Assembly: GCF_018437505.1 (NCBI RefSeq)
Contig: NZ_CP072467.1
Coordinates: forward strand, 3,494,010-3,558,009
Source: Spiractinospora alimapuensis
GTDB lineage: Bacteria > Actinomycetota > Actinomycetes > Streptosporangiales > Streptosporangiaceae
Direction: 5' to 3'
DNA: 64,000 bases
The notes under the pieces were generated by a model. That model ran no database searches, was not told where the DNA came from, and saw only the letters and a list, made by a program, of their open reading frames with translations. How positions within the stretch are numbered: position 1 is the first letter of the stretch; each line of letters starts with the position of its first letter. This document shows positions 25,674 to 50,100 of the stretch, in pieces. A program made the translations under genes and the position numbers.

Positions 25674-26693
25674 TTATTCGTCCTCGGTGTCGCGGGGTGG
25701 CATTCCCCCGATGGCTTCGAACGCCGCGCTGATGGCCGCGCCGTCACTGGCCACGGACAGCAGAGCGAGCAGCAGGACCCGCGCCTTCAGCGGTGCCAGG
25801 AACCCCGCACCGATGAGCCCACGGTCCAACAAGTCGCTCTCCGATCCGGGGAATCCGTAGGTGCTGCTCATGACCGAACCGCCACCGGTGCGGGAGGCCA
25901 GGACGACGGGAACCCGCGCCGCCAGCGCACCCAGCGTTTCGGCCAGGTGCGCCGGCACGTGCCCCCCGCCGAATCCCGCGACGACCAACGCGTCCAATTC
26001 CTCCGCGCCACGCAAGGAGTATCCGTCGTCGGCGAGCGTCACGGTGACCAGGCCGACGCGAGGCCAGTCCGCCGACTGGGGACGCGGCATCGCCACCCGG
26101 CGCTCCAGGCGGTTGACGATGCGGGGGTCGCCCTCCACCACATAGCCCAGCGGCCCACCGTTGGGTGACTGGAACGCCGCGGGGGACGAGCTGTGGGTCT
26201 TCAGGACCCGCCGCGCCGCGTGGATCTCGTCGTTCATCACGACCAGCGCGCCCTCGCCGCTCGCCGTGTCCGACGCGGCGACGCGGATCGACGCCAGCAG
26301 ATTGGCGGGGCCGTCCGGACCGGCGTGGGCGGGGGAGCGCATCGCCCCGGTGACGACGAGCGGCTGCGGCCCGGTGTGCCACAGGTCCAGCAGGAACGCG
26401 GTCTCCTCGAGGGTGTCGGTTCCCTGTACGACGACGGCTCCGTCGGCCCCCTCGGCCAGCCGTTCCTCGATCGCGGCCGACAGGGCCGCGAGGTCGTCCA
26501 GTCCGAGACTCGCGCTGGAGATCCGCTTGAGGTCCACCACGTCCACGGTGACGTCCGTGGCGCGGATCCCCGGAATCGCGGCGACGAGGTCGTCTCCGGT
26601 GAGCATGGGGACAACGGGTCCGCTGTCCTGCGGCCCCATGGCGATCGTGCCGCCCAGGGTGAAGACAACGACATTCTTCGAACTGGACTCCAC
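25674..26693 (-). CDS. L-asparaginase
   Basis: N-terminal TLGGTIAM motif with the catalytic Thr, then the GxxxxHGTDT-like VVVQGTDTLEETAF motif. Confidence 0.85.
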   Translation of the reverse strand: MESSSKNVVVFTLGGTIAMGPQDSGPVVPMLTGDDLVAAIPGIRATDVTVDVVDLKRISSASLGLDDLAALSAAIEERLAEGADGAVVVQGTDTLEETAFLLDLWHTGPQPLVVTGAMRSPAHAGPDGPANLLASIRVAASDTASGEGALVVMNDEIHAARRVLKTHSSSPAAFQSPNGGPLGYVVEGDPRIVNRLERRVAMPRPQSADWPRVGLVTVTLADDGYSLRGAEELDALVVAGFGGGHVPAHLAETLGALAARVPVVLASRTGGGSVMSSTYGFPGSESDLLDRGLIGAGFLAPLKARVLLLALLSVASDGAAISAAFEAIGGMPPRDTEDE

Positions 26694-26895
26694 CGGCTCA
26701 CCCTCCTCGAATCCCGCCGTTCGGCGCCGGCCACATTACCCGGATCCGGTACCGCGCCGGCCGAGGCGGAGCACGGGGGGAACACGCGTCCGGGTACGGG
26801 ACGGCACACCTGGCGGGCGGCGTCCTCCACGTTCTGGGTGGTGCGGCCGGTATCCTTGGGCCGAATCCCGCGGCGCAGAGGCAGAGCACTCGATC

Positions 26896-27909
26896 ATGAC
26901 AGACTCCACACGCAAGACGTCCCTCACCGGCATCAAGCCGACAGGTGACCCGCATCTCGGCAACCTCATCGGTGCGATCCGTCCCGGCCTGCGACTGGCG
27001 GAGTCCTACGACGCCCTGTACTTCATCGCCGACTACCACGCGCTCACCACGATCCGGGACGCCGCGGAGATCCGGAACTACACGCGTTCGGTGGCCTCGG
27101 CGTGGATCGCGGCGGGTCTGGATCCGGAGCGGATCACCATCTACCGGCAGTCGGACGTGCCGGAGACCTTCGAGCTGGCCTGGGTGCTGTCCTGCGTCAC
27201 CGCCAAGGGCCTCATGAACCGGGCCCACGCCTACAAGGCCGCGCGGGACCGCAACCTCGAGGCGGGCGACGCCGACCTCGACGCCGGCGTCAACATGGGG
27301 TTGTTCAACTATCCCGTGCTGATGGCCGCCGACATCCTGATCATGGACACCGACGTGGTTCCGGTCGGCCGGGACCAGGCGCAGCACGTGGAGTACGCGG
27401 CGGACATCGCCGGGTCCTTCAACCACGCCTTCGGTGAGACGGTGCGGGTCCCCAGCTCGGTCATCCCGAGTGAGGAGACCGGGCGCACCCTGCCGGGGAT
27501 CGACGGCCGCAAGATGAGCAAGAGCTACGGCAACACCATTCCGCTGCTGGCGCCGGAGAAGCAACTGAAGAAGCTGGTACGGCGGATCGCCACCGACAGC
27601 ACGGCGGTCGAGGAGCCCAAGGACCCGGACTCCTCCGCGGTGTTCCAACTCCTGGAGCAGTTCGCGTCCCCGGAGGTCACGGCGGACGCGCGCAAGCGGT
27701 TGGAGGCCGGCGGCACGGGGTGGGGTGACCTGAAGAACGAGCTGTTCGAGGTGCTCAACCCCCAGCTCGAGCCGATTCGCGAGCGCTACGCGGAGCTGAT
27801 GGCGCCGGGGAGCGACCTCGACGAGATCCTCGCGGCCGGTGCCGTGCAGGCCCGTGCCCGCGCGCACACCGTTCTCACCCGGGTCCGCGAGGCGACCGGC
27901 ATCGGCTGA
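26896..27909 (+). CDS. trpS: Tryptophan--tRNA ligase
   Basis: HIGH-type motif (GIKPTGDPHLGNLIGA) and KMSKS. ATG 26896 inside the longer artefactual ORF. Confidence 0.9.
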   Translation: MTDSTRKTSLTGIKPTGDPHLGNLIGAIRPGLRLAESYDALYFIADYHALTTIRDAAEIRNYTRSVASAWIAAGLDPERITIYRQSDVPETFELAWVLSCVTAKGLMNRAHAYKAARDRNLEAGDADLDAGVNMGLFNYPVLMAADILIMDTDVVPVGRDQAQHVEYAADIAGSFNHAFGETVRVPSSVIPSEETGRTLPGIDGRKMSKSYGNTIPLLAPEKQLKKLVRRIATDSTAVEEPKDPDSSAVFQLLEQFASPEVTADARKRLEAGGTGWGDLKNELFEVLNPQLEPIRERYAELMAPGSDLDEILAAGAVQARARAHTVLTRVREATGIG

Positions 27910-29092: not shown

Positions 29093-29794
29093 TCACGCAC
29101 CTGCCGGCGGCTGCCCCAGAGCGGTGGGCTCCGACATCGTGAACGTCGCCTCCACGTCCGCGCGCAGCGTGATCCGCGGGACCCCCACCTCGACCCTTGG
29201 CGGGGGAGCGCCCGGTTCGTCCGGTCGCGCGCCGCGAAACGCTTCCTGTCCGGCCGGCGGCGGGAGGCCCGGCGCGGGTTCGGCCCGCGAACTCAGTCCC
29301 ACGTCGGCGATCTCGCGGAGTCCGGTCAGCGTTCCCCCGAGCGCCTCGGCGTAGGTCCGCGCACGCGTGACGGTCTCCTCCACCGCCTGTGACCGGGCGC
29401 GTCCGTACATCGGCGAGGCGGGTCGAAGTTCCCAGGACGGGCCCACCACCTCGGTGAGGTCCTGGTCCGCGAATTCGCCGATCATCGTGCTCATCGCGTC
29501 GAAGTCCCCGACCGTGAGCCGGATCCGGACGCTGCCGTGGTAGCCACGCACCCGCTCCCCCCGCCCGTGATGGAGCTGGGGGTGAACGTTCAGAACGCCC
29601 GTTTCCGCGTCCTCGACCGCCTCCCCGAAGGACCGGATCCGTGCCAGCACGGCGTCGTTCCGCGCGGCGAGGCGGTCCAGGGCGCGTCGGCGATCCTTGT
29701 CCCGCGCACTCGTGACGAGGGTGAGCCGGGCGATCTCCGGGTCGACCTCCATAACGGCCTCACCTCGGACCCGCACGATGGGCGGTGTCGTCAT
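29093..29794 (-). CDS. SIMPL (DUF541) domain protein
   Basis: The core matches the SIMPL/26-kDa periplasmic immunogenic protein family. Start set at the internal ATG 29794. Confidence 0.65.
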   Translation of the reverse strand: MTTPPIVRVRGEAVMEVDPEIARLTLVTSARDKDRRRALDRLAARNDAVLARIRSFGEAVEDAETGVLNVHPQLHHGRGERVRGYHGSVRIRLTVGDFDAMSTMIGEFADQDLTEVVGPSWELRPASPMYGRARSQAVEETVTRARTYAEALGGTLTGLREIADVGLSSRAEPAPGLPPPAGQEAFRGARPDEPGAPPPRVEVGVPRITLRADVEATFTMSEPTALGQPPAGA

Positions 29795-30124
29795 AGCGTT
29801 CCCCTTCCGTGCTCTCCACGACCCCCGGTCGGGAGGTGAGAGTAGCCCGGCGTCGGCGATGTCCTCGTTTCGCCCGTCGACCCGCGTCGGGCGCACCACC
29901 GGAGCCCCGGCGTTGTTTCACGGAAAACATCGTGACGACACCGCGCTGTAGCGCCCTGTCGACTTGCCGTGATGCCCAAGTGGCCACATCGCGACCCCAT
30001 TGGGCCGAATCCGGTCAGGTGACGCCCTGGCGCCATGGGGGTCGAATGGCGTCTTATAGGGTCGTGCTTCCGCATCGCCCGCCGGGTGGTGCAGTGGCGG
30101 CGGGCGAAGGCGGCAGAACGGCGT

Positions 30125-30805
30125 ATGGGTGAGTTCCTCGATGCGGCACTCGGGTTCCCCACCGTTCTCTTCTCGTTCGCCTTGGTCGTCGTCCTGGCCT
30201 ACTGGCTCCTCGCGCTCCTGGGCGTGCTCGACCTGGGTCTGCTCGACTCCTCCGACGACGGCGACGGTCCAGGCATGGGCGCGATGCTCAGCGCCATCGG
30301 ACTCGGTGGCATGCCGGCCACGTTGTCGCTGTCACTGCTCGTCCTTCTGGCATGGTTCTGCAGCCTGGTTGGGAATGTCGTGATCGATTCCCTCACGGGG
30401 TTGTCCACCCCGATCGTCGTCCTTCTCGGTCTGTTGGTCCTGGTGATCGCCGTGACGATCGCGTGGGGGCTGACCAGCGGCGTGGCCGTGGGCATCCGTC
30501 GACTGTTTCCGACGCGACGGAGCCCGGAGCAGCAGCGTGAGGGCACCCAGGCCATGGGCGCGTCCGCGCGTTCCGCCGGTGAGCTGGTCGGGCGCACCTG
30601 CACCGTGCGCACGCTGCGGGTCGACCAGGAGTTCGGGCAGGCGGAGGTCCTCTCCAAAGACGGCTCCACCATGCTCATCCAGGTCCGCACGATCGACGAC
30701 GACGCCCTCACGTCAGGCGACACGGCGTTGATCTTCGATCACGACACGAAGACGGGTTTATACCGCGTCGCTCGGTTCGACGCCCTGAGCGCTGGAGAGC
30801 CCTGA
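30125..30805 (+). CDS. NfeD-like membrane protein (TM segments + C-terminal OB-fold domain), flotillin partner
   Basis: Several N-terminal TM helices, then a C-terminal beta-rich segment (GRTCTVRTLRVDQEFGQAEV…GDTALIF) typical of the short NfeD family. It lies directly upstream of the flotillin gene, as in the yuaF-floT arrangement. Confidence 0.6.
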   Translation: MGEFLDAALGFPTVLFSFALVVVLAYWLLALLGVLDLGLLDSSDDGDGPGMGAMLSAIGLGGMPATLSLSLLVLLAWFCSLVGNVVIDSLTGLSTPIVVLLGLLVLVIAVTIAWGLTSGVAVGIRRLFPTRRSPEQQREGTQAMGASARSAGELVGRTCTVRTLRVDQEFGQAEVLSKDGSTMLIQVRTIDDDALTSGDTALIFDHDTKTGLYRVARFDALSAGEP

Positions 30806-30991
30806 CCCGAAGAGGCTCGGCGGCGCGCACCCGTGTGCCGCCCGCACCGACCGGGGAACGCGACGTTTCGGCGTCGCGCCCATGAGATCCGCACCTCGAG
30901 CGCGACCAGCCGCCTGACCGACCGCCCCTCGTACCGCCCGCCCCGACCCACCGCTCACGCATCCCCTCAAGGCCAGGGAGTCCAACCCCGA

Positions 30992-33010
30992 ATGGAAGCC
31001 ATAGGTATCGCCGGCGGCATCCTCATCGCCGCTCTCGTCGTCATCGCGCTCGTTCTGCCGATCATGCTCATCCGCCTGTTCCGCAAGGTCAAGCAGGGTG
31101 AGGCGCTCATCATCTCCAAGGTCCGCGACGTCGACGTGACCTTGACCGGTGCAGTGGTCCTCCCGGTGCTGCACAAGGCCGAGCTGATGGACATCTCGCA
31201 GAAGTCCATCATGCTGGAACGGTCGGGGAAGAACGCGCTCACCTGCAAGGACAACATCCTCGCCGACATTCGGATCAAGTTCTTCCTCCGCGTCAACCCG
31301 CAGAAGACCGACATCCTGCGGGTCGCGAAGAACATCGGTGTGGAGAGCGCGAGCAGCCAGGACAAACTGCAGGACCTCTTCGACGCCAAGTTCGAGGAGG
31401 CGCTGAAGACCGTCGGGAAGTTCTTCGACTTCGAGGACCTGTACACCCAGCGCAAGGAGTTCCGCGACCGGATCGTCGAGGTCATCGGCAACGACCTGTA
31501 CGGCTACGTCCTGGAGGACGCGGCCATCGCCGACCTGAAGCAGACTCCGCTTTCGGAGCACGACCCGAACAACATCCTCGACGCCGAGGGCATCACCAAG
31601 ATCACCGAGCGCACGGCCATCCAGCATCGGCGCACCAACGAGCTGCAGAACGAGCGCGACAAGGAGATCAAGCGCAGCGACACGGAGACCGCCGAGACCC
31701 TGGCCGAACTCGAGCGGCAGGAAGCCGAGGCGAAGGCGCAGGCGACGCGGGAGATCGAGACGATCCGCGCCCGCGAGGAGGCCGAGACCCAGCGGGTCCA
31801 GGCCGAGGAACGCCTGAAGGCGCGCACCGCGGAGCTGCGTACGGAGGAACAGCTCGGGGTCCAGCGGGAGAACCAGCAGCGTGAGATCGCAGTCGCGGAG
31901 AAGAACCGCGAGCGGGTCATCGCGGTGGAGAGCGAGCGGATCGAGAAGGACCGCATGTTGGAGACCGTCGCCCGTGACCGCGAGGTCGAGCTCTCCACGA
32001 TCGCCAAGGACAAGGAAGTCGAGGCCGAGAAGCGCGAGGTCGCCGACGTCGTCCGCGAGCGGGTCGCGGTGGACAAGACCGTCGCCGAGGAGGAGGAAGC
32101 GATCAAGCGGCTGCGCGCGGTCGAGGAGGCCGAGCGCGAGCGGCAGGCGATCGTCATCAAGGCGGAGGCCGAGGCGCAGGAGAACCTGGTCAAGGACATC
32201 AAGGCCGCGGAGGCCGCGGAACAGTCGGCCAAGCACCGCGCCGCCGAGGAGCTGACCCTGGCCGAGAGCCGCCAGCAGGCCGCCGACCTCGACGCACGCT
32301 CCCAGATCCGGCTGGCCGAAGGAAAGCAGGCCGAGGCCGCGGCCGAGGGGTTGGCGCAGGTACAGGTGCGCGAGTCCGACGCCGCCGCCCTCGAGAAGGT
32401 CGGCAAGGCGGAGAACACCGTCGCACGTGAGAAGGCCACCATCGAGGCCGACGCGATCGCCGCGAAGCTCAAGGCCGAGGCCGAGGGGCTGAACGAGAAG
32501 GCGAGCGCGATGGCCGCACTGGACGAGGTGAGCCGGGAACACGAGGAGTACCGGCTCCGTCTGGACGCGGAGAAGGAGGTGCGCCTGGCCGGGATCGACG
32601 TCCAACGGCACGTCGCGGAGGCGCAGGCGACGGTGCTCGCCTCCGGTCTGGAGAGCGCCGACATCAACATCGTCGGCGGCGACGGCATGTTTTTCGACCG
32701 GATGGTCAACTCGATCGGCCTGGGCAAGGCGGTGGACGGGTTCGTCGGCAACTCCGACGTGGCGCAGTCGCTCGCCGGGTCGTGGTTGAACGGTGACTCC
32801 GACTTCACCGCCGACCTGTCCCGACTCCTGGGCTCAGTGAACACCGAGGACGTCAAGAACCTGACGGTGTCCGCCCTCCTGGTCAAGCTGATCCAGGGTG
32901 GCTCCCCGGAGTCGGACAAGCTGCAGGCGCTCCTGGACAAGGCACACACACTCGGCGTGGCGAACCACCGCGTGGCCTCTCTCGCCGCTGTTGACGACAC
33001 GAAGCGGTGA
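30992..33010 (+). CDS. Flotillin (SPFH/band-7 domain) family protein
   Basis: N-terminal TM, SPFH domain, long E/A/R-rich coiled-coil (EAEA) region and a conserved flotillin C-terminus. 672 aa from ATG 30992. Confidence 0.85.
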   Translation: MEAIGIAGGILIAALVVIALVLPIMLIRLFRKVKQGEALIISKVRDVDVTLTGAVVLPVLHKAELMDISQKSIMLERSGKNALTCKDNILADIRIKFFLRVNPQKTDILRVAKNIGVESASSQDKLQDLFDAKFEEALKTVGKFFDFEDLYTQRKEFRDRIVEVIGNDLYGYVLEDAAIADLKQTPLSEHDPNNILDAEGITKITERTAIQHRRTNELQNERDKEIKRSDTETAETLAELERQEAEAKAQATREIETIRAREEAETQRVQAEERLKARTAELRTEEQLGVQRENQQREIAVAEKNRERVIAVESERIEKDRMLETVARDREVELSTIAKDKEVEAEKREVADVVRERVAVDKTVAEEEEAIKRLRAVEEAERERQAIVIKAEAEAQENLVKDIKAAEAAEQSAKHRAAEELTLAESRQQAADLDARSQIRLAEGKQAEAAAEGLAQVQVRESDAAALEKVGKAENTVAREKATIEADAIAAKLKAEAEGLNEKASAMAALDEVSREHEEYRLRLDAEKEVRLAGIDVQRHVAEAQATVLASGLESADINIVGGDGMFFDRMVNSIGLGKAVDGFVGNSDVAQSLAGSWLNGDSDFTADLSRLLGSVNTEDVKNLTVSALLVKLIQGGSPESDKLQALLDKAHTLGVANHRVASLAAVDDTKR

Positions 33011-33017
33011 TCGCCGC

Positions 33018-36000
33018 GTGACCGATGTGAGTGACGGGCCCTCCTCCACCGAGGAGGGCCCCTCCCCCGACTCCGGATCCACCCTCGACGCCGGAACCTA
33101 CGAGATCCTCCGCGGCCGCCTCGCGGAACAGGCCGCCGAACTGTCCCGGCGCGCCGAGCTGCTGAACACCCGTCGGCTGGAGGTCTTCGGCTCCAGTGAG
33201 CTGCGGCTGCTGGGCACCGAACGTATCCGCACCGAGCACAACTGCGTGCCGCGGGACATCGTCGCCGTGGGCGGGCTGATGATGTTCGGCTACAACGTGT
33301 TCATCGGCCTCAAACCAGAGACCACGGTCAGCGACGTGTTCGCGACGTACTCCTTCGAGCGGAAGCTCGAGGGTGACGGTTTCCGGTTCGTCGAGGCCGA
33401 GCACGAGGAGCTGCCGGGGCTGCTCGCCGACTCCCAGTTCCTCCGCGACTTCGGTGAGCTGTACCGCTACTACAAGGACACCCGGCTCATGCAGCTCCGC
33501 CGGGTGGAGGGCAAGCTCCTCGCGGTCTTCCAGATCGGTCTGCGCACCGACGACACGCGGGTGCTGCGTTGGGCGGTGACCCCGCGCGGCGAGGTCTCCT
33601 ACCGGGACAACCGGGGCGACCGCGATCACGTCTTCCCCGCCCCTCACGACTTCACGTGGGTCGAGACCACCCGTGAGGACCACGTGCTCGGGCGCCATCC
33701 CCACATCTCCATCCTGGACAAGGTGTTCGTGGAGACGGTCGGGGGTGACCTGACCGTCAAGGTGGAGAACAACACGGAGGTCGGGGCCGGCATCTACAGC
33801 GAGCCGGTCGACGAGCCGCTGCAGAGTCTGGCCGACGCCGACGTCCACTACGCCGAGGTCGGCCCCCTCATCCTGATCAGGATCCGGCCCTACAACGAGA
33901 CCACGCGGCGCCACCTGGTGTTCAACACCCGCACCAACGAGGTGGTGCGGCTGGACGGCATCGGCCGCGCGTGCCGTCGTCTCCCCGAGGACCAGGGCAT
34001 CATCTTCCCCGGCGGCTACTACCTGGCCACCGGTGCCTCCACGACCTTCGACACTGACTTCACCGACCTGGAGTTCGAGCGGACCATTCGCTCGCCCAAC
34101 GGTGAGGACGTGCTCTACGCCTTCCACGGACGCGAGGAGGGACGCAGCCTGCTGCTTCCCTACAACGTGATCCGCAAGGAGGTCGCCAACCCGATCGACT
34201 GCCACGGATACTCGCTGTTCGACGACGGCACGCTGGTGCTGTTCCGGAGCACCAGCGACGAGCCCACGCGGGTCCATCCTCTTCAGGTGTGGTCGACACC
34301 GTTCGTGTCCGACGTACACGCCGCCGCCCAGCCCACGGGGACCGGTCCGTTGGAGCGGGTCGGCAACGCCGACCTGGTGCGGGGGATCTCCGACGCGCTG
34401 TCGATCACCCGCATGGTGGACGAGATGTCCCCGTCCACCGCCGTGTTCGAGGCGCTCATCGCGGCCTGCCGGCGGATCGGCGACCACTACCACTGGCTGG
34501 GCGAGGAGGAACTGGAGGCTCTGGCCGAGCCGGTCCAGGAGGTACGCGCCACCGCCCGTCAGGTCCTGGAGGAGTTCGAGAACGTCCAGGCCCTGACCCG
34601 GCAGGCCGCCGAGGCCCTGGAGACCGCGGAGACGGAGATCGCCTCCTTGGTCCGCCGCGCCCGCTCCGAGGACGGTGACAGCGCCGACGCCTGGGTCACC
34701 CTCCTGGCCGAGGTGCGCCGCGCCCAGGGGCGGGTCGTGACCCTCGGCGAGATGCGCTACGTCGACGGCGACCGGGTCGCCGACCTGGGACGTCGACTCT
34801 CCGAGGAACTGGACGCGACCGGCCAGCGGGCGGTGGACTTCCTGCGACGGGAGGAGGCGTTCGCCGCGTACCACGTCGAAGTGCGGCGGCTGAGCGACGA
34901 CGCCGAGGCGATCACCTCCGTCGCCGCCGCCGAACCGGTCGCGGAACGCCTCGCCGAGCAGACCGAGGGGCTGGAGGTCGTCACCGAGGTCATCGACGCC
35001 CTGGACATCGGCGACGCCCAGGTCCGCACCGCGGTGCTCGAACGGATCGGCGAGGTGGCCGGGGCGGTCAACCGGGCCCGCGCCGCACTGGGGGCGCGAC
35101 GACGCGAGCTGATGGACTCCGAGGGCCGTGCGGAGTTCGCCGCGGAGTTCGCCCTCCTCGGCCAGGCCGTCACCGCCGCACTGGCCGCCGCCGACACCCC
35201 CGACGCCTGCGACGACCAGCTCGGCCGGCTCATGCTGCGGTTGGAGAACCTGGAGTCGCGGTTCGCGGAGTTCGACGACTTCCTGGCCGACCTGACCGCC
35301 AAGCGCGAGGACGTCTACGAGGCCCTGTCCGCGCGCAAGCAGGCGTTGCTGGACGAGCGATCCCGCCGCGCCGACCGGTTGGCGTCCTCGTCCGAACGGA
35401 TCCTGTCCGGGGTCCGGCGTCGTGCCGCGGCGCTGGAGACCATCGACGACATCAACACCTACTTCGCCTCCGATCCGATGGTCGCCAAACTTCGGTCGAC
35501 CGCGGAGGAACTCCGCGCCCTCGGTGACACGGTGCGCGCGGAGGAACTGGACGGCCGGGTCAAGACGGTCCGCGAGGAGGCCGGCCGGGCACTACGGGAC
35601 CGGGTCGACCTCTACGACGATGGCGGGGAGACACTCCGGCTGGGGCGCCACCGGTTCGCGGTGAACACCCAACCCATCGACCTGACCATGGTGCCGCACC
35701 AGGGAGAGATGGCGATCACGGTGACCGGCACCGACTTCCGCCAACCGGTGCGTGACGCCGACTTCCAGGAGACCCGCGCCTTCTGGGAGCGGCTGTTGGT
35801 GTCGGAGTCCCCCGAGGTCTACCGGGCGGAGTACCTCGCCGCGGGGATCCTCGCCGACGCCGAGGCCGGTGTGGACGCCCCGTCGATCGCCGAACTGTCC
35901 GAGGCGGCGTTGGGGGACGGCGACGCGTTGTCCGCCATCGTGCGCGGGGCGGCCGAGGCCCGCTACGACGAGGGATACGAGCGTGGTGTCCACGACCACG

Positions 36001-38033
36001 ACGCCGCCCTGATCCTCCGGGCGGTGTTGCGCCTGCGCGCGGCGGCCGGGCCGCTCCGCCACGCGGCCCAGGCTCGCGCCGCGGCCCGGCTCTTCTGGGC
36101 GTTCGGCGCGGAGCCGGAGTCCCGCACGGCGTGGCAGACCCGGTCGGTGTCCCTGGCCCGGGCCCGCGACGTGTTCGGACCGCGTTCGTCGTCGTCGGCG
36201 CTCGGCGCACTGCACGACGAACTGGCCGACGCCGTCGGCCAGTTCCTGGACTCCTCAGGGGTGCCGACGACCGCCGCGACCGCGGCCGGCACCTACCTGG
36301 TGGAGGAGCTGGCACAGTCCCCCACCGGCTTCGGGGTCAGCGCGGAGGCCCGCTCCCTGCTGGACGGGTTCCGGTACGCCCTCGGCGGACCGACCGCCGC
36401 TGCCTACAAGGAGTTCACCTCCGATCTCGCGGCGCTGGGCGGGCTGGCGGAACGGCACCAACTGGCCTCCGCCTGGATGGGCGCCTACACGGCGACCCTC
36501 GACGGCGCCACCCCTCCGAGGGAGGTGGTGGACGAGGCGGTCGCGGTGGAGTTGTGCGGAACCGCGGTCCCGCGGTACGACTCCTCCGCCGAGCTGACGG
36601 CGACGGTCGAGGGGGTGCTCGGCGCGCATCCGCGGATCAGCGAGCGCCGGGTCAAGCTGCGTCTGGACGAGTTCCTCGAGCGCACGCGGAGATCGCGCGA
36701 GGAGGACGCGCCCGCGTTCCGTGCCTACCTGCGACGGCGCAACGAGCTGGTGGAGGCCGAACGGTCCCGACTCCGCCTGGAGGAGTACACGCCCAAGGTG
36801 ATGAGCGGGTTCGTCCGCAACCGTCTCCTCGACGAGTCCTACCTGCCACTGATCGGCGACAACCTGGCCAAGCAGCTCGGCGCCACGGGGGACGGCAAAC
36901 GCACCGACAACAACGGCCTGCTCCTCCTCATCTCTCCGCCGGGGTACGGAAAGACCACCCTGATGGAGTACGTGGCGAGCCGACTCGGTCTGGTGTTCGT
37001 GAAGGTCAACGGCCCTGCCCTGGGCCACGCGGTCACGTCCCTGGATCCCGCCGACGCGCCCGACGCCACGGCCCGGCAGGAGGTCGAGAAGATCGGGTTC
37101 GCCCTGGAGATGGGCAGCAACGTACTGCTGTACTTGGACGACATCCAGCACACGAACCCGGAACTGCTGCAGAAGTTCATCTCCCTCTGTGACGGCCAAC
37201 GCCGGATGGAGGGAGTGTGGGAGGGACGCACCCGCACCTACGACATGCGCGGCAAGCGCTTCGCCGTGTGCATGGCGGGCAACCCCTACACCGAGCAGGG
37301 ACAGCGGTTCCGGATCCCGGACATGCTGGCCAACCGGGCCGACGTCTACAATCTCGGCGACGTTCTCTCCGGCAAGGACGACGTGTTCGCGCTCAGTTAC
37401 ATCGAGAACGCGCTCGCGGCCAACACCGTGCTGGCTCCCCTGTCCGGCCGCGACCGGGGGGACATCGAACTCCTGGTGCGGATGGCCTCCGGCGACGGCT
37501 CGGTGCACTCCGATCGCCTGTCCCACCCGTACTCGCAGGTGGAACTGGAGCAGATTCTCGCGGTGCTGCGCAAACTGCTCCGGGTGCAGCAGGTTGTGCT
37601 CGCCGTGAACCAGGCCTACATCGCCTCGGCCGCGCAGTCCGACGACGCCCGGACCGAACCGCCGTTCCAACTCCAGGGCTCCTACCGCAACATGAACCGG
37701 TTGGCGGAGCGCGTGGTCCCGGTGATGAACGAGGCCGAACTCGAGGCCCTGATCGACGACCACTACCTCGGCGAGGCCCAGACACTCACCGCCGGGGCGG
37801 AGGCCAACCTTCTGAAACTCGCCGAACTTCGTGGCACCCTCACCCCGGAACAGGAAGAACGCTGGACCGAGGTCAAGTCCGCCTACCTCCGCACCAAGGC
37901 CCTCGGCGGCGACGGCGAGGACCCCGTGTCCCGAGCCATCGGCGCCGTCGGTCTCCTCGCCGACCGGGTCGGCGACGTCCAATCCGCGATCGAACGCGCC
38001 TCGGACCGGCCGTCGGGGTCGAACGGGCGGTGA
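33018..38033 (+). CDS. Giant (~1,670 aa) protein: N-terminal beta-rich region, long coiled-coil middle, AAA_5 (MoxR/dynein-type) ATPase module near the C-terminus
   Basis: GTG starts 8 nt after the flotillin stop. Walker A ISPPGYGKTT, Walker B LLYLDDIQH, sensor CMAGNPYT and an RF arginine-finger region are present. The frame is uninterrupted for 5 kb. Confidence 0.7.
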   Translation: MTDVSDGPSSTEEGPSPDSGSTLDAGTYEILRGRLAEQAAELSRRAELLNTRRLEVFGSSELRLLGTERIRTEHNCVPRDIVAVGGLMMFGYNVFIGLKPETTVSDVFATYSFERKLEGDGFRFVEAEHEELPGLLADSQFLRDFGELYRYYKDTRLMQLRRVEGKLLAVFQIGLRTDDTRVLRWAVTPRGEVSYRDNRGDRDHVFPAPHDFTWVETTREDHVLGRHPHISILDKVFVETVGGDLTVKVENNTEVGAGIYSEPVDEPLQSLADADVHYAEVGPLILIRIRPYNETTRRHLVFNTRTNEVVRLDGIGRACRRLPEDQGIIFPGGYYLATGASTTFDTDFTDLEFERTIRSPNGEDVLYAFHGREEGRSLLLPYNVIRKEVANPIDCHGYSLFDDGTLVLFRSTSDEPTRVHPLQVWSTPFVSDVHAAAQPTGTGPLERVGNADLVRGISDALSITRMVDEMSPSTAVFEALIAACRRIGDHYHWLGEEELEALAEPVQEVRATARQVLEEFENVQALTRQAAEALETAETEIASLVRRARSEDGDSADAWVTLLAEVRRAQGRVVTLGEMRYVDGDRVADLGRRLSEELDATGQRAVDFLRREEAFAAYHVEVRRLSDDAEAITSVAAAEPVAERLAEQTEGLEVVTEVIDALDIGDAQVRTAVLERIGEVAGAVNRARAALGARRRELMDSEGRAEFAAEFALLGQAVTAALAAADTPDACDDQLGRLMLRLENLESRFAEFDDFLADLTAKREDVYEALSARKQALLDERSRRADRLASSSERILSGVRRRAAALETIDDINTYFASDPMVAKLRSTAEELRALGDTVRAEELDGRVKTVREEAGRALRDRVDLYDDGGETLRLGRHRFAVNTQPIDLTMVPHQGEMAITVTGTDFRQPVRDADFQETRAFWERLLVSESPEVYRAEYLAAGILADAEAGVDAPSIAELSEAALGDGDALSAIVRGAAEARYDEGYERGVHDHDAALILRAVLRLRAAAGPLRHAAQARAAARLFWAFGAEPESRTAWQTRSVSLARARDVFGPRSSSSALGALHDELADAVGQFLDSSGVPTTAATAAGTYLVEELAQSPTGFGVSAEARSLLDGFRYALGGPTAAAYKEFTSDLAALGGLAERHQLASAWMGAYTATLDGATPPREVVDEAVAVELCGTAVPRYDSSAELTATVEGVLGAHPRISERRVKLRLDEFLERTRRSREEDAPAFRAYLRRRNELVEAERSRLRLEEYTPKVMSGFVRNRLLDESYLPLIGDNLAKQLGATGDGKRTDNNGLLLLISPPGYGKTTLMEYVASRLGLVFVKVNGPALGHAVTSLDPADAPDATARQEVEKIGFALEMGSNVLLYLDDIQHTNPELLQKFISLCDGQRRMEGVWEGRTRTYDMRGKRFAVCMAGNPYTEQGQRFRIPDMLANRADVYNLGDVLSGKDDVFALSYIENALAANTVLAPLSGRDRGDIELLVRMASGDGSVHSDRLSHPYSQVELEQILAVLRKLLRVQQVVLAVNQAYIASAAQSDDARTEPPFQLQGSYRNMNRLAERVVPVMNEAELEALIDDHYLGEAQTLTAGAEANLLKLAELRGTLTPEQEERWTEVKSAYLRTKALGGDGEDPVSRAIGAVGLLADRVGDVQSAIERASDRPSGSNGR

Positions 38034-38115
38034 GTTCGACGGGCGGCGGGGCTGTCGGTTCGTGTTCCGCGGGGGCGGGGAGGACGTCGTCTCCTCCCTG
38101 CCCCCGCGGTTCGGA

Positions 38116-38841
38116 TCAGTCGGGGAGGATCCGGCGCAGAATCAGCCGCTCGCCCAGGGCCCACCCGGTGGAGACCAGCAGGTAGAGACCGGCGGCCAGG
38201 GGGACGAAGGCGGCGACCACCGCGGTCATGTACGGCAGGTAGGTGACGATGCCCGGCATCTGCGGCGTCGCCGCGCCGGTGCTCACGGCGGCGTTGTCCC
38301 GCATCGTCGGCACCATGACGTAGCGCCGCTGCGCCCAGGCGATCACCGCGAGGAACGCGATGATCAGCACGAAGACCGGCTCCACCATCGCCCCCTGGGA
38401 CGTCGCGGTCAGGGTGGCCCCCAGCTCCACACCGCCGAAGGTGTCCGACAGCAAGGCGTTGTCGGCACCGGAGGCTCCGACGAAGACGCCGTACAGGGCG
38501 AGGACGATGGGAATCTGCACGAGCCCCGGCAGGCACCCGGCGAAGGGCGAGGACCCCGCCTCGGAGTAGACCTTGCGCTGCTCGGTCATCATCCGTTGGG
38601 GGTCTTTCCGGTACCGGGTGCTGATGCGGGCGAGATCCGGTGCGATGCGTTTGCGCACCTTCTCGGCGCGCACCTGGGAGACGGCCACCGGCACCAGCGC
38701 GAGACGCACCGCGACGGTCAGGAGCACGATGGACAGCCCCGCCGCACCGGCGGGGACGACGGGTGTGAGTGCTGAGGAGATCGCGACCAGGGCCGAGGAC
38801 AGTAGGTCCATGGCGGCCGCGACGGGGGCAAGACTGTACAA
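38116..38841 (-). CDS. yidC: YidC/Oxa1 family membrane protein insertase (short form)
   Basis: 5-TM insertase core (…PFAGCLPGLVQIPIVLALY…). TTG start with a GAAGGG RBS. Confidence 0.8.
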   Translation of the reverse strand: MYSLAPVAAAMDLLSSALVAISSALTPVVPAGAAGLSIVLLTVAVRLALVPVAVSQVRAEKVRKRIAPDLARISTRYRKDPQRMMTEQRKVYSEAGSSPFAGCLPGLVQIPIVLALYGVFVGASGADNALLSDTFGGVELGATLTATSQGAMVEPVFVLIIAFLAVIAWAQRRYVMVPTMRDNAAVSTGAATPQMPGIVTYLPYMTAVVAAFVPLAAGLYLLVSTGWALGERLILRRILPD

Positions 38842-38944: not shown

Positions 38945-39256
38945 TCAGCGAGCGGCCACGAGGGCCGCTCCCGGTGCTCTGGGCCGGGGCCGACCGGGCG
39001 TGTCGGGCGCCCGCAGCGGAACGACCTGTAGTCGTTCGGACTTGCGGCGCATGGCACGTACGGCGTCCGGAGCGGCGTCTCCGGCGGGCCAGGACGAGAA
39101 CCCACGCACCAACCGCAACGCGAGAAACGCCGCCGCGGTAACCGCGAGCAGCGCGAACGCCCCGGACATCCCCGGCGTTCCGGGAGCCGCGGCGGAGAAC
39201 TCGAACGGCAGGGTCCCCAGGTATAGGAACTCCAAGAGGGCGATGACGAAGTGCAC
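38945..39256 (-). CDS. Hypothetical small membrane protein
   Basis: 103-aa ORF with a GTG start preceded by GGGAGGAGGGGG. It has two hydrophobic helices and is co-directional with yidC. Confidence 0.35.
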   Translation of the reverse strand: MHFVIALLEFLYLGTLPFEFSAAAPGTPGMSGAFALLAVTAAAFLALRLVRGFSSWPAGDAAPDAVRAMRRKSERLQVVPLRAPDTPGRPRPRAPGAALVAAR

Positions 39257-39744
39257 GTTCCCCCTCCTCCCAACCGCGTCACCCGCAGTCTACGGTCACC
39301 CCACCCCCCAACGCCGGGGGCCCGTCCACTTCCGGACACCAACGCCGGCCCCGAACCCTCGACCCAGGCCTCGACCGTCTACGGCGGAGGGAGCAGAGAC
39401 GTGGTTGCCACACGGGCCCGGCGCGGAGCGCCCAAGCAAGCAGAGGGGGTACCCCAACGAGCACACCGGACGCCCCGCGAGCAGGTTCACCACAGCCAGC
39501 CCGCGGGCCCACCTGTGTCCAGGCCCTCGATCTCCTGCGGCGCCGAACGGATTCGCTTACGGCAAGCTGCCACGGACCGCTCCAGCCACCAGAGAGCGGG
39601 TCCTCCACAGCACGCCGTACACGCAGAGCCACCACCGGACGCTAGACCGAGCCACCTTCGCTCCAGGCCCTCGACCACCACCAACGCCCAGCCAACATTG
39701 CCACGCGGGGGGCATGGGGGGTCGTCCCCCCAACAAACACAAAC

Positions 39745-39790
39745 AAGACGACCCTGCGAGGCTGCCTTAGCAGCCGAGCAGGGTCGTCTT
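39745..39790. terminator. Nested stem-loop (13-bp perfect stem AAGACGACCCTGC/GCAGGGTCGTCTT, 20-nt loop containing GGCTGC/GCAGCC); likely the native tRNA-Ile terminator left at attL
   Basis: Perfect complementarity was seen directly. It lies immediately downstream (tRNA sense) of the displaced 3' tRNA-Ile fragment. Confidence 0.45.
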
Positions 39791-39796
39791 AGAGTC

Positions 39797-39840
39797 GCGT
39801 GGGCGTACGTGGACTTGAACCACGGACCTCATCCTTATCA
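39797..39840. repeat. attL: 44-bp direct repeat (3' portion of tRNA-Ile, anticodon loop to 3' end) identical to 49960-50003
   Basis: cgtgggcgtacgtggacttgaaccacggacctcatccttatcag is identical at both sites. The left copy cannot fold into a complete tRNA. Confidence 0.85.
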
Positions 39841-39922
39841 GTTCGATCCGGGTCGATCTCAGAAGTGTGCTGACGTGGACTCGGCGTCCGCCGCCGTCCG
39901 CCTGAGTCACGTGGTGTCTGGT

Positions 39923-39947
39923 CGCGTTGCTGTCACTACTGCTGTCA
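39923..39947. repeat. 25-bp direct repeat cgcgttgctgtcactactgctgtca (copy 1, inside the element's P' arm, 83 bp from the attL core)
   Basis: Identical to 49888..49912 (48 bp from the attR core). Candidate integrase arm-type site. Confidence 0.55.
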
Positions 39948-40360
39948 GACCGCATCATCGCTGAACGTCCGCCAGCCTCGCACATGCACGGACGACATGT
40001 GCGTTCCTCACTCGCGTCAGGTGGCGGTCCTCCCATCCCGGCGGCGGGTGACGGCGGTATCGAACCGGCGCGGGTTCTGGCGCGTGCGGTCTGTACCCGG
40101 GCACGTCCCGCATCGCGCCAGGTTCCGTGTCGGAACCGGGGGTCCATGGGGGCGGGAGCCCCCTGGTTCCACCAGTCCGCACCCGCGCAAGCGTCCACCG
40201 TTCGGGACCGGGCGGCAGCCCGCAGCCCGAGCGGTGGACGGGGCTGGTGCGACGGCGCGCAGCGCCGGCGCCTTGATCCCATACAGCCGGATTCGGCAGC
40301 GATTTCTACCTGAGCGCCAATGACCTCGATACATTCTTTCCGATCAAGAGATATCTACAA

Positions 40361-41362
40361 TTGGACCACCAGAAAGCAGACTTCAATCCCGACCCAAACA
40401 TTGGGCCTCGAACAAACACCAACAAGGCGATAAAATTTCAGATCCATCGGAGGATGACACGATCAAGCACAAAGAGAGGGACAACTTTGGTAAACACAGG
40501 CGAACCCGATGCAACCGATGACGCCAATCCGCCTAACAGTACAGAAGGCCCCACCACGGCTGCCTATGATCTTGCTGACACAAGATTCAGATTACATGAG
40601 AACCAGAGTGCTATCGAAAAGGAAGAGAACGGCAAGAGATACTCGTCGTGGGCCATTACATCAACCTTCGTGTTTCTGATATTGATAGCGGCACTCAACT
40701 ACATCGACCCTCCCCACACACCCCTTCTGTGGATCAACATCGGAACAGGGATTGTTGCCATTACCGCGATAATTTGGAGCGGACTAAACGTAACCCACAG
40801 AAATGCGAGCATAACAAGACTCCACTCATCACGTCGAAAATTGCGCGACGCAGAGAAGAACGCCAGGATTCGCGTATCCGATCGAGACTTGACACGAATC
40901 CTCTGGAACTACCACTCGGACATCGCGGCAGCCATCGATGACTACAGAGCCAGCGCTCGCAGCTACAGGACCATCCACAATAGATTCCAGACCTTCATCA
41001 TTGTTGTCTCCCTCCTGGTTACCGCAGTAACCACCGCCTCTGCACAGTTCTCTGGACTCGAATGGATCGCCGCAGTCCTCAGCTTCTTGGTCGCCGTATC
41101 GACAGGAATTCTTGGCTACTTCAAGTTCCGCGATCGCGGAGTAAACTTACAACGAGCGGCGGATGACCTGGAATACGAATACAATTCAGTCGAACTTGGG
41201 ATCAATTCTTACCGCAATGAGGAGAATACAGACAAACGTCTGAAGCTATTTGCAGAAAAATCCGAGTCCATCAAAATTGAACAAAGGAAGCGAGAGCAAC
41301 AAATGGAGCAAGGCCCAGAGCAGCAGACGACATCCGGCGGCAGCGAAGGCTCAGGACAATAG
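40361..41362 (+). CDS. AT-rich cargo gene: 4-TM membrane protein with tandem SLATT/DUF4231-like 2-TM modules (predicted pore-forming/effector-type)
   Basis: The ORF is far lower in GC than the rest of the window. It has two pairs of TM helices, each followed by a basic/acidic helix (…YRTIHNRFQTFIIVVSLLVTAVTTA…LSFLVAVSTGILGYFKFRDRGVNLQRAADDLEYEY). The pattern matches DUF4231/SLATT. The start is uncertain (TTG 40361 or ATG 40454). Confidence 0.55.
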   Translation: MDHQKADFNPDPNIGPRTNTNKAIKFQIHRRMTRSSTKRGTTLVNTGEPDATDDANPPNSTEGPTTAAYDLADTRFRLHENQSAIEKEENGKRYSSWAITSTFVFLILIAALNYIDPPHTPLLWINIGTGIVAITAIIWSGLNVTHRNASITRLHSSRRKLRDAEKNARIRVSDRDLTRILWNYHSDIAAAIDDYRASARSYRTIHNRFQTFIIVVSLLVTAVTTASAQFSGLEWIAAVLSFLVAVSTGILGYFKFRDRGVNLQRAADDLEYEYNSVELGINSYRNEENTDKRLKLFAEKSESIKIEQRKREQQMEQGPEQQTTSGGSEGSGQ

Positions 41363-41414
41363 ATCTCGCATCATCCCATGAATTCATCTTGCTTCATTCC
41401 TGTAAAGTGTCCCC

Positions 41415-42197
41415 ATGAGCCCGGAACGACTCATAAACCTTGGGCAAGAGCTTGGCCGCCTGAGAAAGTCAGTCGGACAGTCAGGCCGCACGTTGGCCTT
41501 CCTAGCGTCGGTCCCACAGCCGACCATATCCCGCGTTGAGAACGGACAGCGGGTGCGATCGGTTGAGGTGGTCGAACGCATCATTTCTGCTTTGCCGCTG
41601 GATGAGGGCGAGGCGGCCCGGTTGCGATCGAATGCGCGGGCCGCGTATGCGGAGGAGGCTCCTCCTCGGATCGATTCGGGGTTCTCGCTGAAGTCGGACG
41701 CTGTGCGCAGGTTGGAACGTTCGGCGACGGTGGTGTGGAGCTTTCAGTCCGCGGTACTGCCTCGGCTGCTCCGGACTGCCGAGTACAGCCAGGCTGCGGG
41801 CATGCCGCGTCTGAACAGTTCGGATCTCCTCGACGACGAGAGTCGAGCCTTCCGGTTCCTGGTGACTGAGGGCGCGCTGCGGACCTGGCCGGGTGCCGCC
41901 GAAGTGATGCCAGGTCAGCTCAACCACCTGACGTACGCGTCGACCCGGCCGAACCTATGGCTCGGTGTAATCCCCTGGTCGACGCCCATGCACACCATGC
42001 CTCCCCACGGGTTCACCGTGTACGACCAAGCGGCGGTGTCGGTGGAGACCTTCACGGCCGAGTTGACGATCACTGACCCGAACGACGTGACCGCCTACCG
42101 GGACGCCTTCGCAGATCTGGAACGCGCTGCCGTGACTGGGGACGAAGCACTGGCCGTGTTGGACACGATCCGTGAGGACCTCGGACGATTCCATTGA
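41415..42197 (+). CDS. XRE-family HTH regulator with DUF5753 C-domain (Scr1-like)
   Basis: HTH (GRTLAFLASVPQPTISRVENGQR) plus DUF5753. Paralogous to the chromosomal copy at 23802-24635. Confidence 0.75.
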   Translation: MSPERLINLGQELGRLRKSVGQSGRTLAFLASVPQPTISRVENGQRVRSVEVVERIISALPLDEGEAARLRSNARAAYAEEAPPRIDSGFSLKSDAVRRLERSATVVWSFQSAVLPRLLRTAEYSQAAGMPRLNSSDLLDDESRAFRFLVTEGALRTWPGAAEVMPGQLNHLTYASTRPNLWLGVIPWSTPMHTMPPHGFTVYDQAAVSVETFTAELTITDPNDVTAYRDAFADLERAAVTGDEALAVLDTIREDLGRFH

Positions 42198-42272
42198 TTC
42201 AGTGAATTCGTTGAATCATTCTGCCTTGGTGGCTTACCCTGCCCACAAGCAAGGTGTATAGCCCCCTAGACG

Positions 42273-42680
42273 ATGGTGGTTTTGATGGATCGCTGGTCTC
42301 GAATGTTCACCGCGCGCCCTGACCAAGTCGGTGCGGCGCGGGCCTTTACGTGTGGCGTACTGGAGGGACACCCCTCGTGCGATGACGCGTTGGTCGTCGT
42401 CAGCGAGCTGGCCACCAACTCCGTCCAGCACTCCTTAAGCGGGTGCTACGAGGGTCCGTTCATCGTCTCGATCGAGGTCCACGAGGAATCGGTACGTCTG
42501 AGTGTCCTGGACCTCGGCTCGGACTCCGAGCCGGTGCTTGAACAGCCAGAGGACGCCACGCAAGAACGTGGACGTGGACTGTGGTTGGTCGCGCAACTCT
42601 CCAAGGAGTGGGGTGTGGAGGCGGTGCAGGCAGAGTTCCTGCGGGTGTGGGCCGAACTCGTTCCCGAAACCGCCCCATGA
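42273..42680 (+). CDS. HATPase_c-type ATP-binding protein (RsbW/anti-sigma-factor-like Ser kinase family)
   Basis: ~135 aa with …VSELATNSVQHS… (N-box) and …ERGRGLWLVAQLSKEWGV… (G-box-like). This is the typical Streptomyces partner of XRE/DUF5753 genes. Confidence 0.7.
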   Translation: MVVLMDRWSRMFTARPDQVGAARAFTCGVLEGHPSCDDALVVVSELATNSVQHSLSGCYEGPFIVSIEVHEESVRLSVLDLGSDSEPVLEQPEDATQERGRGLWLVAQLSKEWGVEAVQAEFLRVWAELVPETAP

Positions 42681-42814
42681 CCGGTCCGCGCATGCCTCGG
42701 CGGCGCCGACTGTTCAACGCCATCAGCTCAACATCGGGCCAGGTCATGGATCCTGCCTTGTCTAGGGACCTAGACTCTCCCTCAGAGGACTGTGCGCACG
42801 AGGGAAGGGGGCCG

Positions 42815-43660
42815 ATGTCCAGCGAGTTTGAGCGCATTGCCGCCATGGAGGACCCGTTCGCGCTCCTGCGTGCGGCGACCGACCGGCTCAGTGAGGCACA
42901 GCAGGAGGTCACGGACCTGTCCCGGCTGCGCCGTCGCACAATTCAGGACCTGCACGCGCAAGGTCTCTCCTACGCGCAGATCGCCACACAGGCCGGCCTG
43001 AGCCGCGGTCGCATCCACCAGATCCGTCATACCGGTCCCGCTCCGGAAGGCGCGTTCTTCGGATCGGGCACGGTCACCATTGTCACGCCACTGCGGCCCG
43101 AGCCGGGCAAACCGCGGGCTGCAGTGTCCCTGGATGACCTCAACACCGGCAAGCGACTGGAGGACCTTGTCCGCTCCTTCGACCTGACGGTGCAGGACGA
43201 TCATGTCAGCGTTGACGGGGTGGTCGACCTGGATCGCCCTGGCCTGGTGGTCGTGTGCGGGCCGCGGATGTCGGAAGCGATGGCCAGGACCTACGCGCTC
43301 GATCCCGTGTTCGCCTGGGAACGTAACGATGCCGGCCCATGGTGTATTCGGGACCGGCGCACCGGGAAGGCCCACTACGCGGGCTCGGACGAGGCGCCGC
43401 CCTCGGCTGGTGACATCGGATACCTGGGTCGCCTTCCTCGGCCGGATGGTGCTGGCTCGATTCTGGCCATCGCTGGTATCCACCCGGTGGGCTCGCTGGG
43501 GGTGGCCCACTGGCTGACCACCGACATCGCCACCCTCTGGGGCCAGGTCGGGGATCAGGACTTCTCCGTCCTCATCCGTACCGAGTACGACCCGGACACC
43601 AATGAACCGGTGAAAACCGAGATGGCGACTCCGCTCTACCGTCACGAGGACGGGCGTTGA
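42815..43660 (+). CDS. Hypothetical protein with N-terminal sigma-70 region-4-like HTH
   Basis: ATG 42815 with GAGGGAAGGGGG upstream. HTH RRRTIQDLHAQGLSYAQIATQAGLSRGRIHQI. The C-terminal 200 aa are of unknown family. Confidence 0.5.
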   Translation: MSSEFERIAAMEDPFALLRAATDRLSEAQQEVTDLSRLRRRTIQDLHAQGLSYAQIATQAGLSRGRIHQIRHTGPAPEGAFFGSGTVTIVTPLRPEPGKPRAAVSLDDLNTGKRLEDLVRSFDLTVQDDHVSVDGVVDLDRPGLVVVCGPRMSEAMARTYALDPVFAWERNDAGPWCIRDRRTGKAHYAGSDEAPPSAGDIGYLGRLPRPDGAGSILAIAGIHPVGSLGVAHWLTTDIATLWGQVGDQDFSVLIRTEYDPDTNEPVKTEMATPLYRHEDGR

Positions 43661-50035: not shown

Positions 50036-50100
50036 GCAACCGGGGGAAACTTTACCGCATCTGTGCCGTGGCGGCGAACTGGTGCGGTTCTGGGTTCAGT

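Follow-up and report, generated by a model that had tools for sequence, protein, structure and literature searches.

A conserved module of a YqiJ-type membrane protein, a flotillin, and a giant AAA+ ATPase mis-named as a DNA repair enzyme, as seen in Spiractinospora alimapuensis

The 64-kb stretch of the genome of Spiractinospora alimapuensis (Nocardiopsaceae) analysed here (64,000 nucleotides, hereafter "the window"; G+C content ~68%) contains, at positions 30125-38033, three co-directional genes on the plus strand. The first encodes a small YqiJ/DUF1449-type membrane protein, the second a flotillin of the YqiK type, and the third a giant AAA+ ATPase that belongs to the DUF3686 family. They form a self-contained cassette whose members are inherited together, and the S. 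alimapuensis locus is an ordinary orthologue of a widespread, conserved, and mis-named module. The arrangement has already been described computationally by Ravi et al. (mSystems 2024; preprint 2020; PMC11237479), so the association is not new, and the interest lies in the mechanism, with nothing unusual about the S. alimapuensis copy. With moderate confidence, we propose that the ATPase acts on a cytoplasmic flotillin scaffold, or on the clients of that scaffold, in membrane-stress or membrane-protein quality control. The genes and their immediate neighbours are arranged as follows (lengths in amino acids, aa, or nucleotides, nt):

29093-29899, minus strand: upstream neighbour, a SIMPL/DUF541 gene
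30125-30805, plus strand: gene 1, a YqiJ/DUF1449-type membrane protein of 226 aa, ATG start
30806-30991, plus strand: spacer of 186 nt between gene 1 and the flotillin gene
30992-33010, plus strand: gene 2, a YqiK-type flotillin of 672 aa, ATG start, TGA stop at 33008-33010
33018-38033, plus strand: gene 3, the giant protein of the DUF3686 family, 1,671 aa, GTG start
38042-38057, plus strand: weak terminator-like hairpin just 3' of the giant stop codon (consensus scan only)
38116-38841, minus strand: downstream neighbour, a YidC-like gene

The three co-directional open reading frames (ORFs) had been listed in a first-pass annotation made from the letters of the DNA, and they stand confirmed: the G+C content at third codon positions (0.84-0.91, frame-specific) indicates that all are real genes, and each has hundreds to thousands of homologues. 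Because genes on the opposite strand bound it on both sides, the unit consists of exactly three genes. The giant protein is 100% identical to an S. alimapuensis entry at NCBI (P0001), where the start is placed at the GTG at 33027, giving 1,668 aa. The distance from the flotillin stop to the giant start is 7 nt (16 nt with the annotated GTG at 33027), and the earlier statement that the giant gene begins 8 nt later was essentially right. A GGGAG-like Shine-Dalgarno sequence lies ~12 nt 5' of the flotillin start. The 186-nt spacer shows no RNA structure signal (fold z-score 0.03) and no Rfam match, and a consensus scan found no sigma-70-like promoter in the region, the spacer included. Terminator-like sites in the region number five against 2.1 expected; the hairpin at 38042-38057 is not evidence of function.

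The conserved linkage of the three genes is among the observations that support our proposal. One genome per species was scanned with conserved peptides of the giant protein, which gave at least 595 loci, and the best 80 of these were extracted together with 8 kb on either side. Upstream DNA is available for 77 of them, the other three ending at a contig edge on that side, and in every one of the 77 the next gene upstream, in the same orientation, encodes a flotillin homologue (tblastn with the window proteins); the 77 include Myxococcus, Corallococcus, two deltaproteobacterial metagenome-assembled genomes (MAGs), a proteobacterial MAG, and a Clostridia MAG. The same order is present in five more records, namely Hymenobacter sp. 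DG25B, the Pseudomonas fluorescens plasmid pQBR103, Deinococcus actinosclerus (where the genes are annotated as hypothetical, hypothetical, and "DNA repair protein"), Vibrio campbellii, and Proteus mirabilis. In total, a flotillin gene stands directly upstream of the giant homologue in 82 of 82 informative loci, spanning at least six phyla (Actinomycetota, Myxococcota, Bacteroidota, Gammaproteobacteria, Deinococcota, and the Clostridia MAG), and in 66 loci the search also recovered a YqiJ-like gene preceding that for flotillin. The association of the giant protein with flotillin, which had been suggested from the window, is thus decisively upheld by the neighbourhood check in the genomic sense; the role as a mechano-ATPase or scaffold that was suggested along with it is a conjecture. 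The flanking genes of the window (SIMPL, YidC, and SBF) never occur at the loci retrieved, and neither clustering of the flanking ORFs of the 80 loci nor tblastn with the neighbours in the Clostridia MAG and Myxococcus revealed a fourth gene common to the lineages. The divergence of the homologues from the window proteins is correlated across loci (r=0.79 for the giant protein and flotillin, r=0.81 for flotillin and the YqiJ-like protein; r=0.70-0.81 over the three proteins), which is consistent with inheritance as a unit. Only in 12 Streptomyces loci does a conserved gene of ~660 aa accompany the module in synteny, just downstream of the giant gene in 11 and upstream in one; its sequence suggests a putative membrane protein that has NAD-binding repeats of the TrkA type, and this synteny is lineage-specific and outside the core.

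How tightly the genes are joined differs between the two junctions and between lineages. Translational coupling, which had been claimed for the operon, is plausible between the flotillin and giant genes, whose stop and start codons overlap by 4 nt or are separated by a gap of at most 11 nt in many actinomycete genera. Genes 1 and 2, on the other hand, are not coupled, because 186 nt separate them. One may ask whether the genes are simply co-transcribed and functionally independent, the giant protein working on unrelated cytoplasmic substrates and the linkage being regulatory only. The lack of interaction data and the intergenic gaps of up to 260 nt in Streptomyces would suit this explanation; however, adjacency and order are strictly kept across six phyla while the flanks change, and such constancy in bacterial operons usually reflects a common complex or pathway, so that we regard functional independence as improbable.

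Neither Pfam nor NCBIfam recognizes the product of gene 1 or gene 2, and their identities were therefore assigned by pairwise or profile comparison with E. coli YqiJ and YqiK. The gene 2 protein matches no Pfam or NCBIfam model, Band_7 and Flot included, even at E<=10. It is nevertheless clearly homologous to YqiK (BLASTP E=2e-29, 26% identity over 449 residues, from the transmembrane helix through the SPFH domain), and the names flotillin, SPFH, or YqiK have been given to its homologues at 66-73% identity, many of which carry PF01145; the match to the human flotillin-1 chains in the PDB is weak (E=0.004). A single hydrophobic transmembrane helix (residues 1-33) is followed by RLFRKVK, and a Glu/Ala-rich helical region at ~240-540, which aligns with YqiK, leads to a flotillin-type C-terminal region. 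By the positive-inside rule, the bulk of the protein, with its SPFH and putative coiled-coil parts, is predicted to be cytoplasmic, in the same compartment as the giant protein. We considered whether flotillins linked to the giant protein share a special C-terminal docking tail and rejected the idea, as the tail is found in some lineages and is absent in pQBR103 and Deinococcus. The Streptomyces protein StlP, a near miss in the literature, is different, being a stomatin-like SPFH protein of another cluster.

The flotillin half of the "NfeD-flotillin pair" seen by the first-pass annotation is thereby secure; the NfeD half is not. The gene 1 protein has three hydrophobic segments and a C-terminal beta-rich domain, the latter predicted by the positive-inside rule to be on the cytoplasmic side, and carries the conserved motif VGRxCxVRTxRVDxxFGQAEV...G..ALIFDYD. 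No match to NfeD (PF01957) or to any other Pfam family was obtained for it (E<=10) or for 13 of its homologues (E<=1), and its family profile matched no PDB sequence at E<=10. Against E. coli YqiJ, hhalign gave a weak, collinear alignment with the FGQ motif in common (E=1.3e-3, probability 19%). The protein is 100% identical to a "DUF1449 domain-containing protein" at NCBI (P0393), where its relatives are named "YqiJ family" or "OB-fold-containing", and it is homologous to the product of the gene upstream of flotillin in Hymenobacter, pQBR103, and Proteus. Hinderhofer et al. (2009; PMC2636767) viewed the YqiJ group as only very distantly NfeD-like. On this sequence evidence, the gene 1 protein is best called YqiJ/DUF1449-type and not a validated NfeD. 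Its loop between the first and second transmembrane segments (window 30230-30300; alignment columns 35-100) is highly variable in length, being acidic in actinomycetes and rich in Gly/Ala repeats and in His (HDHDAH, GHAGHSHLHD) in Myxococcus and Corallococcus, and it could be a metal- or lipid-facing element.

The giant protein belongs to a large family: its close homologues number more than 6,600, and clustering at 50% identity leaves 803 representatives, of which those not resembling fragments are 1,600-1,900 aa long. For a protein of such length, the conservation is high. Homologues in the actinomycete genera Nocardiopsis, Micromonospora, Amycolatopsis, Nonomuraea, and Streptomyces share 58-73% identity with the S. 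alimapuensis protein, and those in other phyla 41-55%. Its domains and motifs are:

33138-34493 (giant residues 41-492), plus strand: DUF3686 (PF12458), Pfam E=2.7e-217, model positions 1-448 of 448
34854-35108 (giant residues 613-697), plus strand: DUF7902, Pfam E=5.9e-27, inside the helix-rich stalk at ~480-865
36921-37298 (giant residues 1302-1427), plus strand: AAA_5, core of the AAA+ module, 29.2 bits against a cutoff of 22
giant residues 1302-1380, plus strand: AAA, 26.5 bits against a cutoff of 21.2
36933-36959, plus strand: Walker A, SPPGYGKTT
37125-37142 (giant residues 1370-1375), plus strand: Walker B, LLYLDD
giant residue N1422: sensor-1 candidate, within GNPYTE
giant residue R1440: Arg-finger candidate, within PDMLANRAD

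Residues 1-530 of the giant protein were modelled with a 15-sequence alignment (predicted local distance difference test, pLDDT, 85.4; predicted template modelling score, pTM, 0.84). The modelled chain starts with a disordered tail (1-24) and a long helix (27-57); about seven four-stranded blades then make up a beta-rich domain (63-426), and further helices (444-529) follow. Foldseek searches of the PDB with these residues returned almost exclusively beta-propellers (E~1e-5, template modelling, TM, score 0.2-0.3), among them IFT-A WD40 domains, paraoxonase, the trilobed-protease propeller, prolyl oligopeptidase, Sec12, and the clathrin terminal domain. The N-terminus, which had been read as beta-rich, is thus predicted to be a beta-propeller, clear as to its fold class and with no close relative in the PDB. 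The coiled coil of ~700 aa that had been placed after it was an overestimate: judged from composition only, residues ~480-865 (~350-400 aa) are helix-rich and poor in Pro and Gly, ~870-915 are beta-like, and ~920-1190 are helical and richer in Gly and Pro. No transmembrane segment was found in the whole protein, which indicates a soluble protein, and Pfam detects no protease domain.

The C-terminal part is a AAA+ module. A model of residues 1190-1671 (pLDDT 80.7) shows a Rossmann-like AAA+ core followed by a helical lid and C-terminal helices, with a beta-hairpin between the Walker B and sensor-1 strands (fragment residues 207-220), and its top Foldseek matches in the PDB are the MoxR-family proteins NorQ and CbbQ, then RuvB (E ~1e-6, TM score <=0.6, target-relative). 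When searched against PDB sequences, the family-wide profile gave matches at the P-loop/Walker-A level only, with no solved member or close relative. In an alignment of 23 diverse homologues, the segments SPPGYGKT, DDIQH, GNPYTE, and PDMLANRAD and, in the lid region, RTEPxFxLQGSYRxM are invariant. Hence the MoxR-type AAA+ module claimed by the first-pass annotation is largely borne out, by an AAA_5 score that passes the Pfam threshold, by the NorQ/CbbQ-like fold, and by the invariant Walker A; its description of all motifs as intact does not extend to Walker B, which in these homologues is an invariant Asp-Asp (LYLDDIQH) instead of the canonical Asp-Glu. Because E. coli DnaA, an active ATPase, has the same DDIQ core (ALLIDDIQFF), the Asp-Asp Walker B appears compatible with ATP hydrolysis, and the enzyme may be slow or under regulation and not inactive.

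It should be mentioned that the databases give this family a quite different identity. The Pfam title of PF12458 is "ATPase involved in DNA repair", and database entries bear the name "DNA repair ATPase". If the name were right, the giant protein would be a repair enzyme, and the title and the names copied from it are all that speaks for this. Pfam and NCBIfam searches, however, found no DNA-binding or nuclease domain and none of the SMC/Rad50/RecN type; the only NCBIfam matches were sub-threshold RuvB hits confined to the P-loop (18.8 bits against a cutoff of 282). The two constant partners of the protein both belong to the membrane, the neighbourhoods inspected contained no repair genes, and a literature search for DUF3686 or PF12458 found no paper. 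A role in DNA repair is therefore very improbable, and "DNA repair ATPase" is a legacy label without support, although most named entries of the family carry it.

The first-pass annotation had presented the three-gene unit as no textbook flotillin operon, and in this respect it had been anticipated. In the operon of Ravi et al. (PMC11237479), a YqiJ/YuaF gene, a flotillin gene, and a gene for a beta-propeller AAA+ protein often occur with a CesT/Tir-PspA dyad; a supplementary table gives the same gene order for Dokdonia donghaensis, the type example lying near ANH61663.1. That paper is purely computational and mentions the abbreviated three-gene form in one sentence only. The order of a three-transmembrane YqiJ/YuaF gene, a Band-7-flotillin gene, and a gene for a beta-propeller, coiled-coil, and AAA+ protein is also found in the window, which differs from that operon in having no CesT/Tir-PspA dyad. 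The bridge between the two is the plasmid operon of Hymenobacter (locus 3658-12971), which encodes Tir, PspA/IM30, a DUF1449 protein, a flotillin-like protein, and a "DNA repair ATPase"; the last is 44% identical to the window giant over 97% of its length, and the flotillin is 39% identical. Because this Tir-PspA operon carries a homologue of the window giant, the DUF3686 family is the ATPase of the operon described by Ravi et al. A LexA-family regulator is encoded divergently upstream of the Hymenobacter operon. On pQBR103 (locus 43-13247), the module closes a co-directional run of ten genes, which encode YjfI, PspA/IM30, a rhomboid protease, DUF2491, DUF350, and DUF1190 proteins, a member of the glutathionylspermidine-synthase family, the YqiJ-like protein, the SPFH protein, and the giant protein. 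The PspA, Tir, and YjfI proteins of Hymenobacter and pQBR103, used as tblastn queries, matched nothing in the 64-kb window or in the 80 genome loci with their 8-kb flanks, all of which represent the abbreviated form without the CesT/Tir-PspA dyad.

These PspA-linked forms, in Bacteroidota and Pseudomonas, point to a membrane-stress physiology, and they also give rise to the main alternative to our proposal. The giant protein might be a Vps4-like remodeller of polymers of PspA/IM30, the bacterial ESCRT-III, with flotillin and the YqiJ-like protein serving for recruitment only and the actinomycetes relying on a PspA encoded elsewhere. The CesT/Tir-PspA genes directly upstream in Hymenobacter and the shared operon on pQBR103 argue for it. 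Against this, PspA is absent within 8 kb on either side in 80 of the 80 genome loci and from the whole window, whereas the flotillin gene is always adjacent; moreover, the AAA+ core is of the MoxR type and not of the classic clade to which Vps4 belongs, and no MIT-like domain was detected. We consider remodelling of PspA polymers unlikely, and the other three alternatives discussed here less likely still.

A giant NTPase combined with a propeller and a coiled coil also recalls conflict systems, in which such a large NTPase would sense invasion (by a phage, for example) and the membrane component would be the effector. Copies of the module on megaplasmids (pQBR103, Hymenobacter, and Deinococcus) and the presence in the window, ~2 kb downstream, of a low-G+C island that carries a SLATT-like gene fit this idea. 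However, PADLOC returned only Walker-A/P-loop noise (E>=0.002), phage genomes gave no match, and the module is rare on plasmids, being present in 13 of 72,556 records, several of which are in fact chromosomes or chromids. The proteins showed no effector domain of the nuclease, protease, or pore-forming kind, and the identity of 58-73% across actinomycete genera seems unlike that of patchy, fast-evolving defence genes. A function in anti-phage defence or other conflict is thus quite unlikely, more so than functional independence of the genes.

To place our preferred proposal, that the ATPase works on the flotillin scaffold or its clients, it is useful to compare the module with known systems. 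E. coli yqiJ-yqiK and B. subtilis yuaF-floT (SPFH2/NfeD2 in PMC2636767) likewise consist of a gene for a small protein with several transmembrane segments and a C-terminal beta-rich domain, followed by a gene for a flotillin with a single transmembrane segment; both are two-gene operons without an ATPase, to which the window adds the giant gene. The resemblance at the sequence level is limited, the window flotillin being only 26% identical to YqiK and gene 1 only marginally similar to YqiJ. Shewanella SO1376/SO1377 is likewise a different system, a two-gene YqiJK operon that ends in a terminator and has no ATPase.

Abstracts of published papers report that SPFH cages pair with AAA+ machines, for example HflK/C with FtsH in membrane-protein quality control, and that flotillin and other SPFH cages have been solved as oligomeric scaffolds. 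Our module shares with HflK/C-FtsH an SPFH-family scaffold tied to a AAA+ ATPase, as an analogy and not as family membership. HflK/C faces the periplasm, and FtsH is a membrane-anchored AAA protease of the classic clade. The giant protein, in contrast, is soluble, has no protease domain, has a MoxR-like core, and is encoded in the same operon as the scaffold. Its AAA+ module is structurally closest to the MoxR family (NorQ, CbbQ, and RavA; AAA_5), with AAA_5 above threshold, but it differs from these proteins in ~1,300 extra N-terminal residues and in the Asp-Asp Walker B, and it resembles them in sequence over no more than ~125 residues (E=1e-6).

The mechanism that we infer runs as follows. 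Flotillin would form an oligomeric scaffold on the cytoplasmic face of the membrane, where the YqiJ-like protein would be its partner. The ATPase, probably made in step with flotillin (the gap is 7 nt here and the genes overlap in many genera), would dock on the scaffold through its propeller or its stalk. There it would spend ATP either on the scaffold itself, by assembling, disassembling, or remodelling it, or on the clients held there, by unfolding or extracting them. The setting may be a response to membrane stress or the quality control of membrane proteins. Besides the linkage, the changing flanks, the close junction of the flotillin and giant genes, the correlated divergence, and the PspA-linked operons, this proposal draws on the contrast between a soluble giant protein and two membrane-anchored partners and on the validated AAA+ core. 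Such a mechanism would complement the behaviour of S. aureus FloA-NfeD, which holds unfolded proteins without ATP (PMC11222466), and would by analogy parallel HflK/C-FtsH. A more specific form of the proposal, which we put forward tentatively and with clearly less confidence, is that the giant protein is a MoxR-like ring docked by its propeller and helical stalk on the cytoplasmic apex of a cage of YqiK-type flotillin, where, powered by ATP, it opens the cage, takes it apart, or pulls out clients. If so, it would be the cytoplasmic-face counterpart of HflK/C-FtsH and the first energy-consuming partner for a bacterial flotillin, coupled in some phyla to PspA/ESCRT-III membrane repair.

Several points weigh against an ATPase acting on flotillin. 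The literature yielded no experimental study of any family member and no physical or genetic evidence of interaction. In Streptomyces, the flotillin and giant genes are 40-260 nt apart, so tight coupling is not universal, and the correlated divergence described above is expected for any two vertically inherited genes. Linkage alone cannot tell flotillin, PspA, or third-party clients apart as the target of the ATPase, and the C-terminal tail of the flotillin is variable and thus offers no conserved, obvious docking site. Finally, ATPases of the MoxR type normally work with partners that have a VWA domain, and no VWA gene was found in the neighbourhood of the window or in the annotated loci inspected. 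The mechanism of bacterial flotillins, although these have received wide study, is debated, and the best-studied of them act without ATP; here a flotillin is provided with a AAA+ ATPase of its own that is inherited along with it. An understanding of the effect of that ATPase on the scaffold could reveal how such assemblies form, open, or are removed in membrane stress, and could clarify their connection to PspA/ESCRT-III repair.

The remaining observations concern other parts of the window. A stretch of lower G+C content at 39000-44600 (0.58 at 40-42 kb against ~0.68 elsewhere) starts ~1 kb 3' of the module and has the appearance of a regulatory or conflict island that was acquired; its vicinity contains no tRNA gene. 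It contains the following genes:

40361-41362: a DUF4231/SLATT_5-like protein with two transmembrane segments
41415-42197: a regulator with HTH_31 and DUF5753
42273-42680: a HATPase_c_2 anti-sigma-like protein
42581-43660: a protein with sigma-70 region 4/HTH
43657-44481: a PP2C_2 phosphatase

Upstream of the module, an ORF at 26161-27909 resembles class I Trp/Tyr-tRNA synthetases, the Pfam domain being restricted to residues 254-533. The ORF overlaps, in its 5' portion, an asparaginase gene on the opposite strand (25674-26693), and its true start is probably near 26.9 kb. The GC skew reaches +0.20 in the 2-kb bin at 50001-52000, against an absolute value of at most 0.11 elsewhere, and this bin coincides with a minus-strand ORF of 671 aa at 50820-52832.

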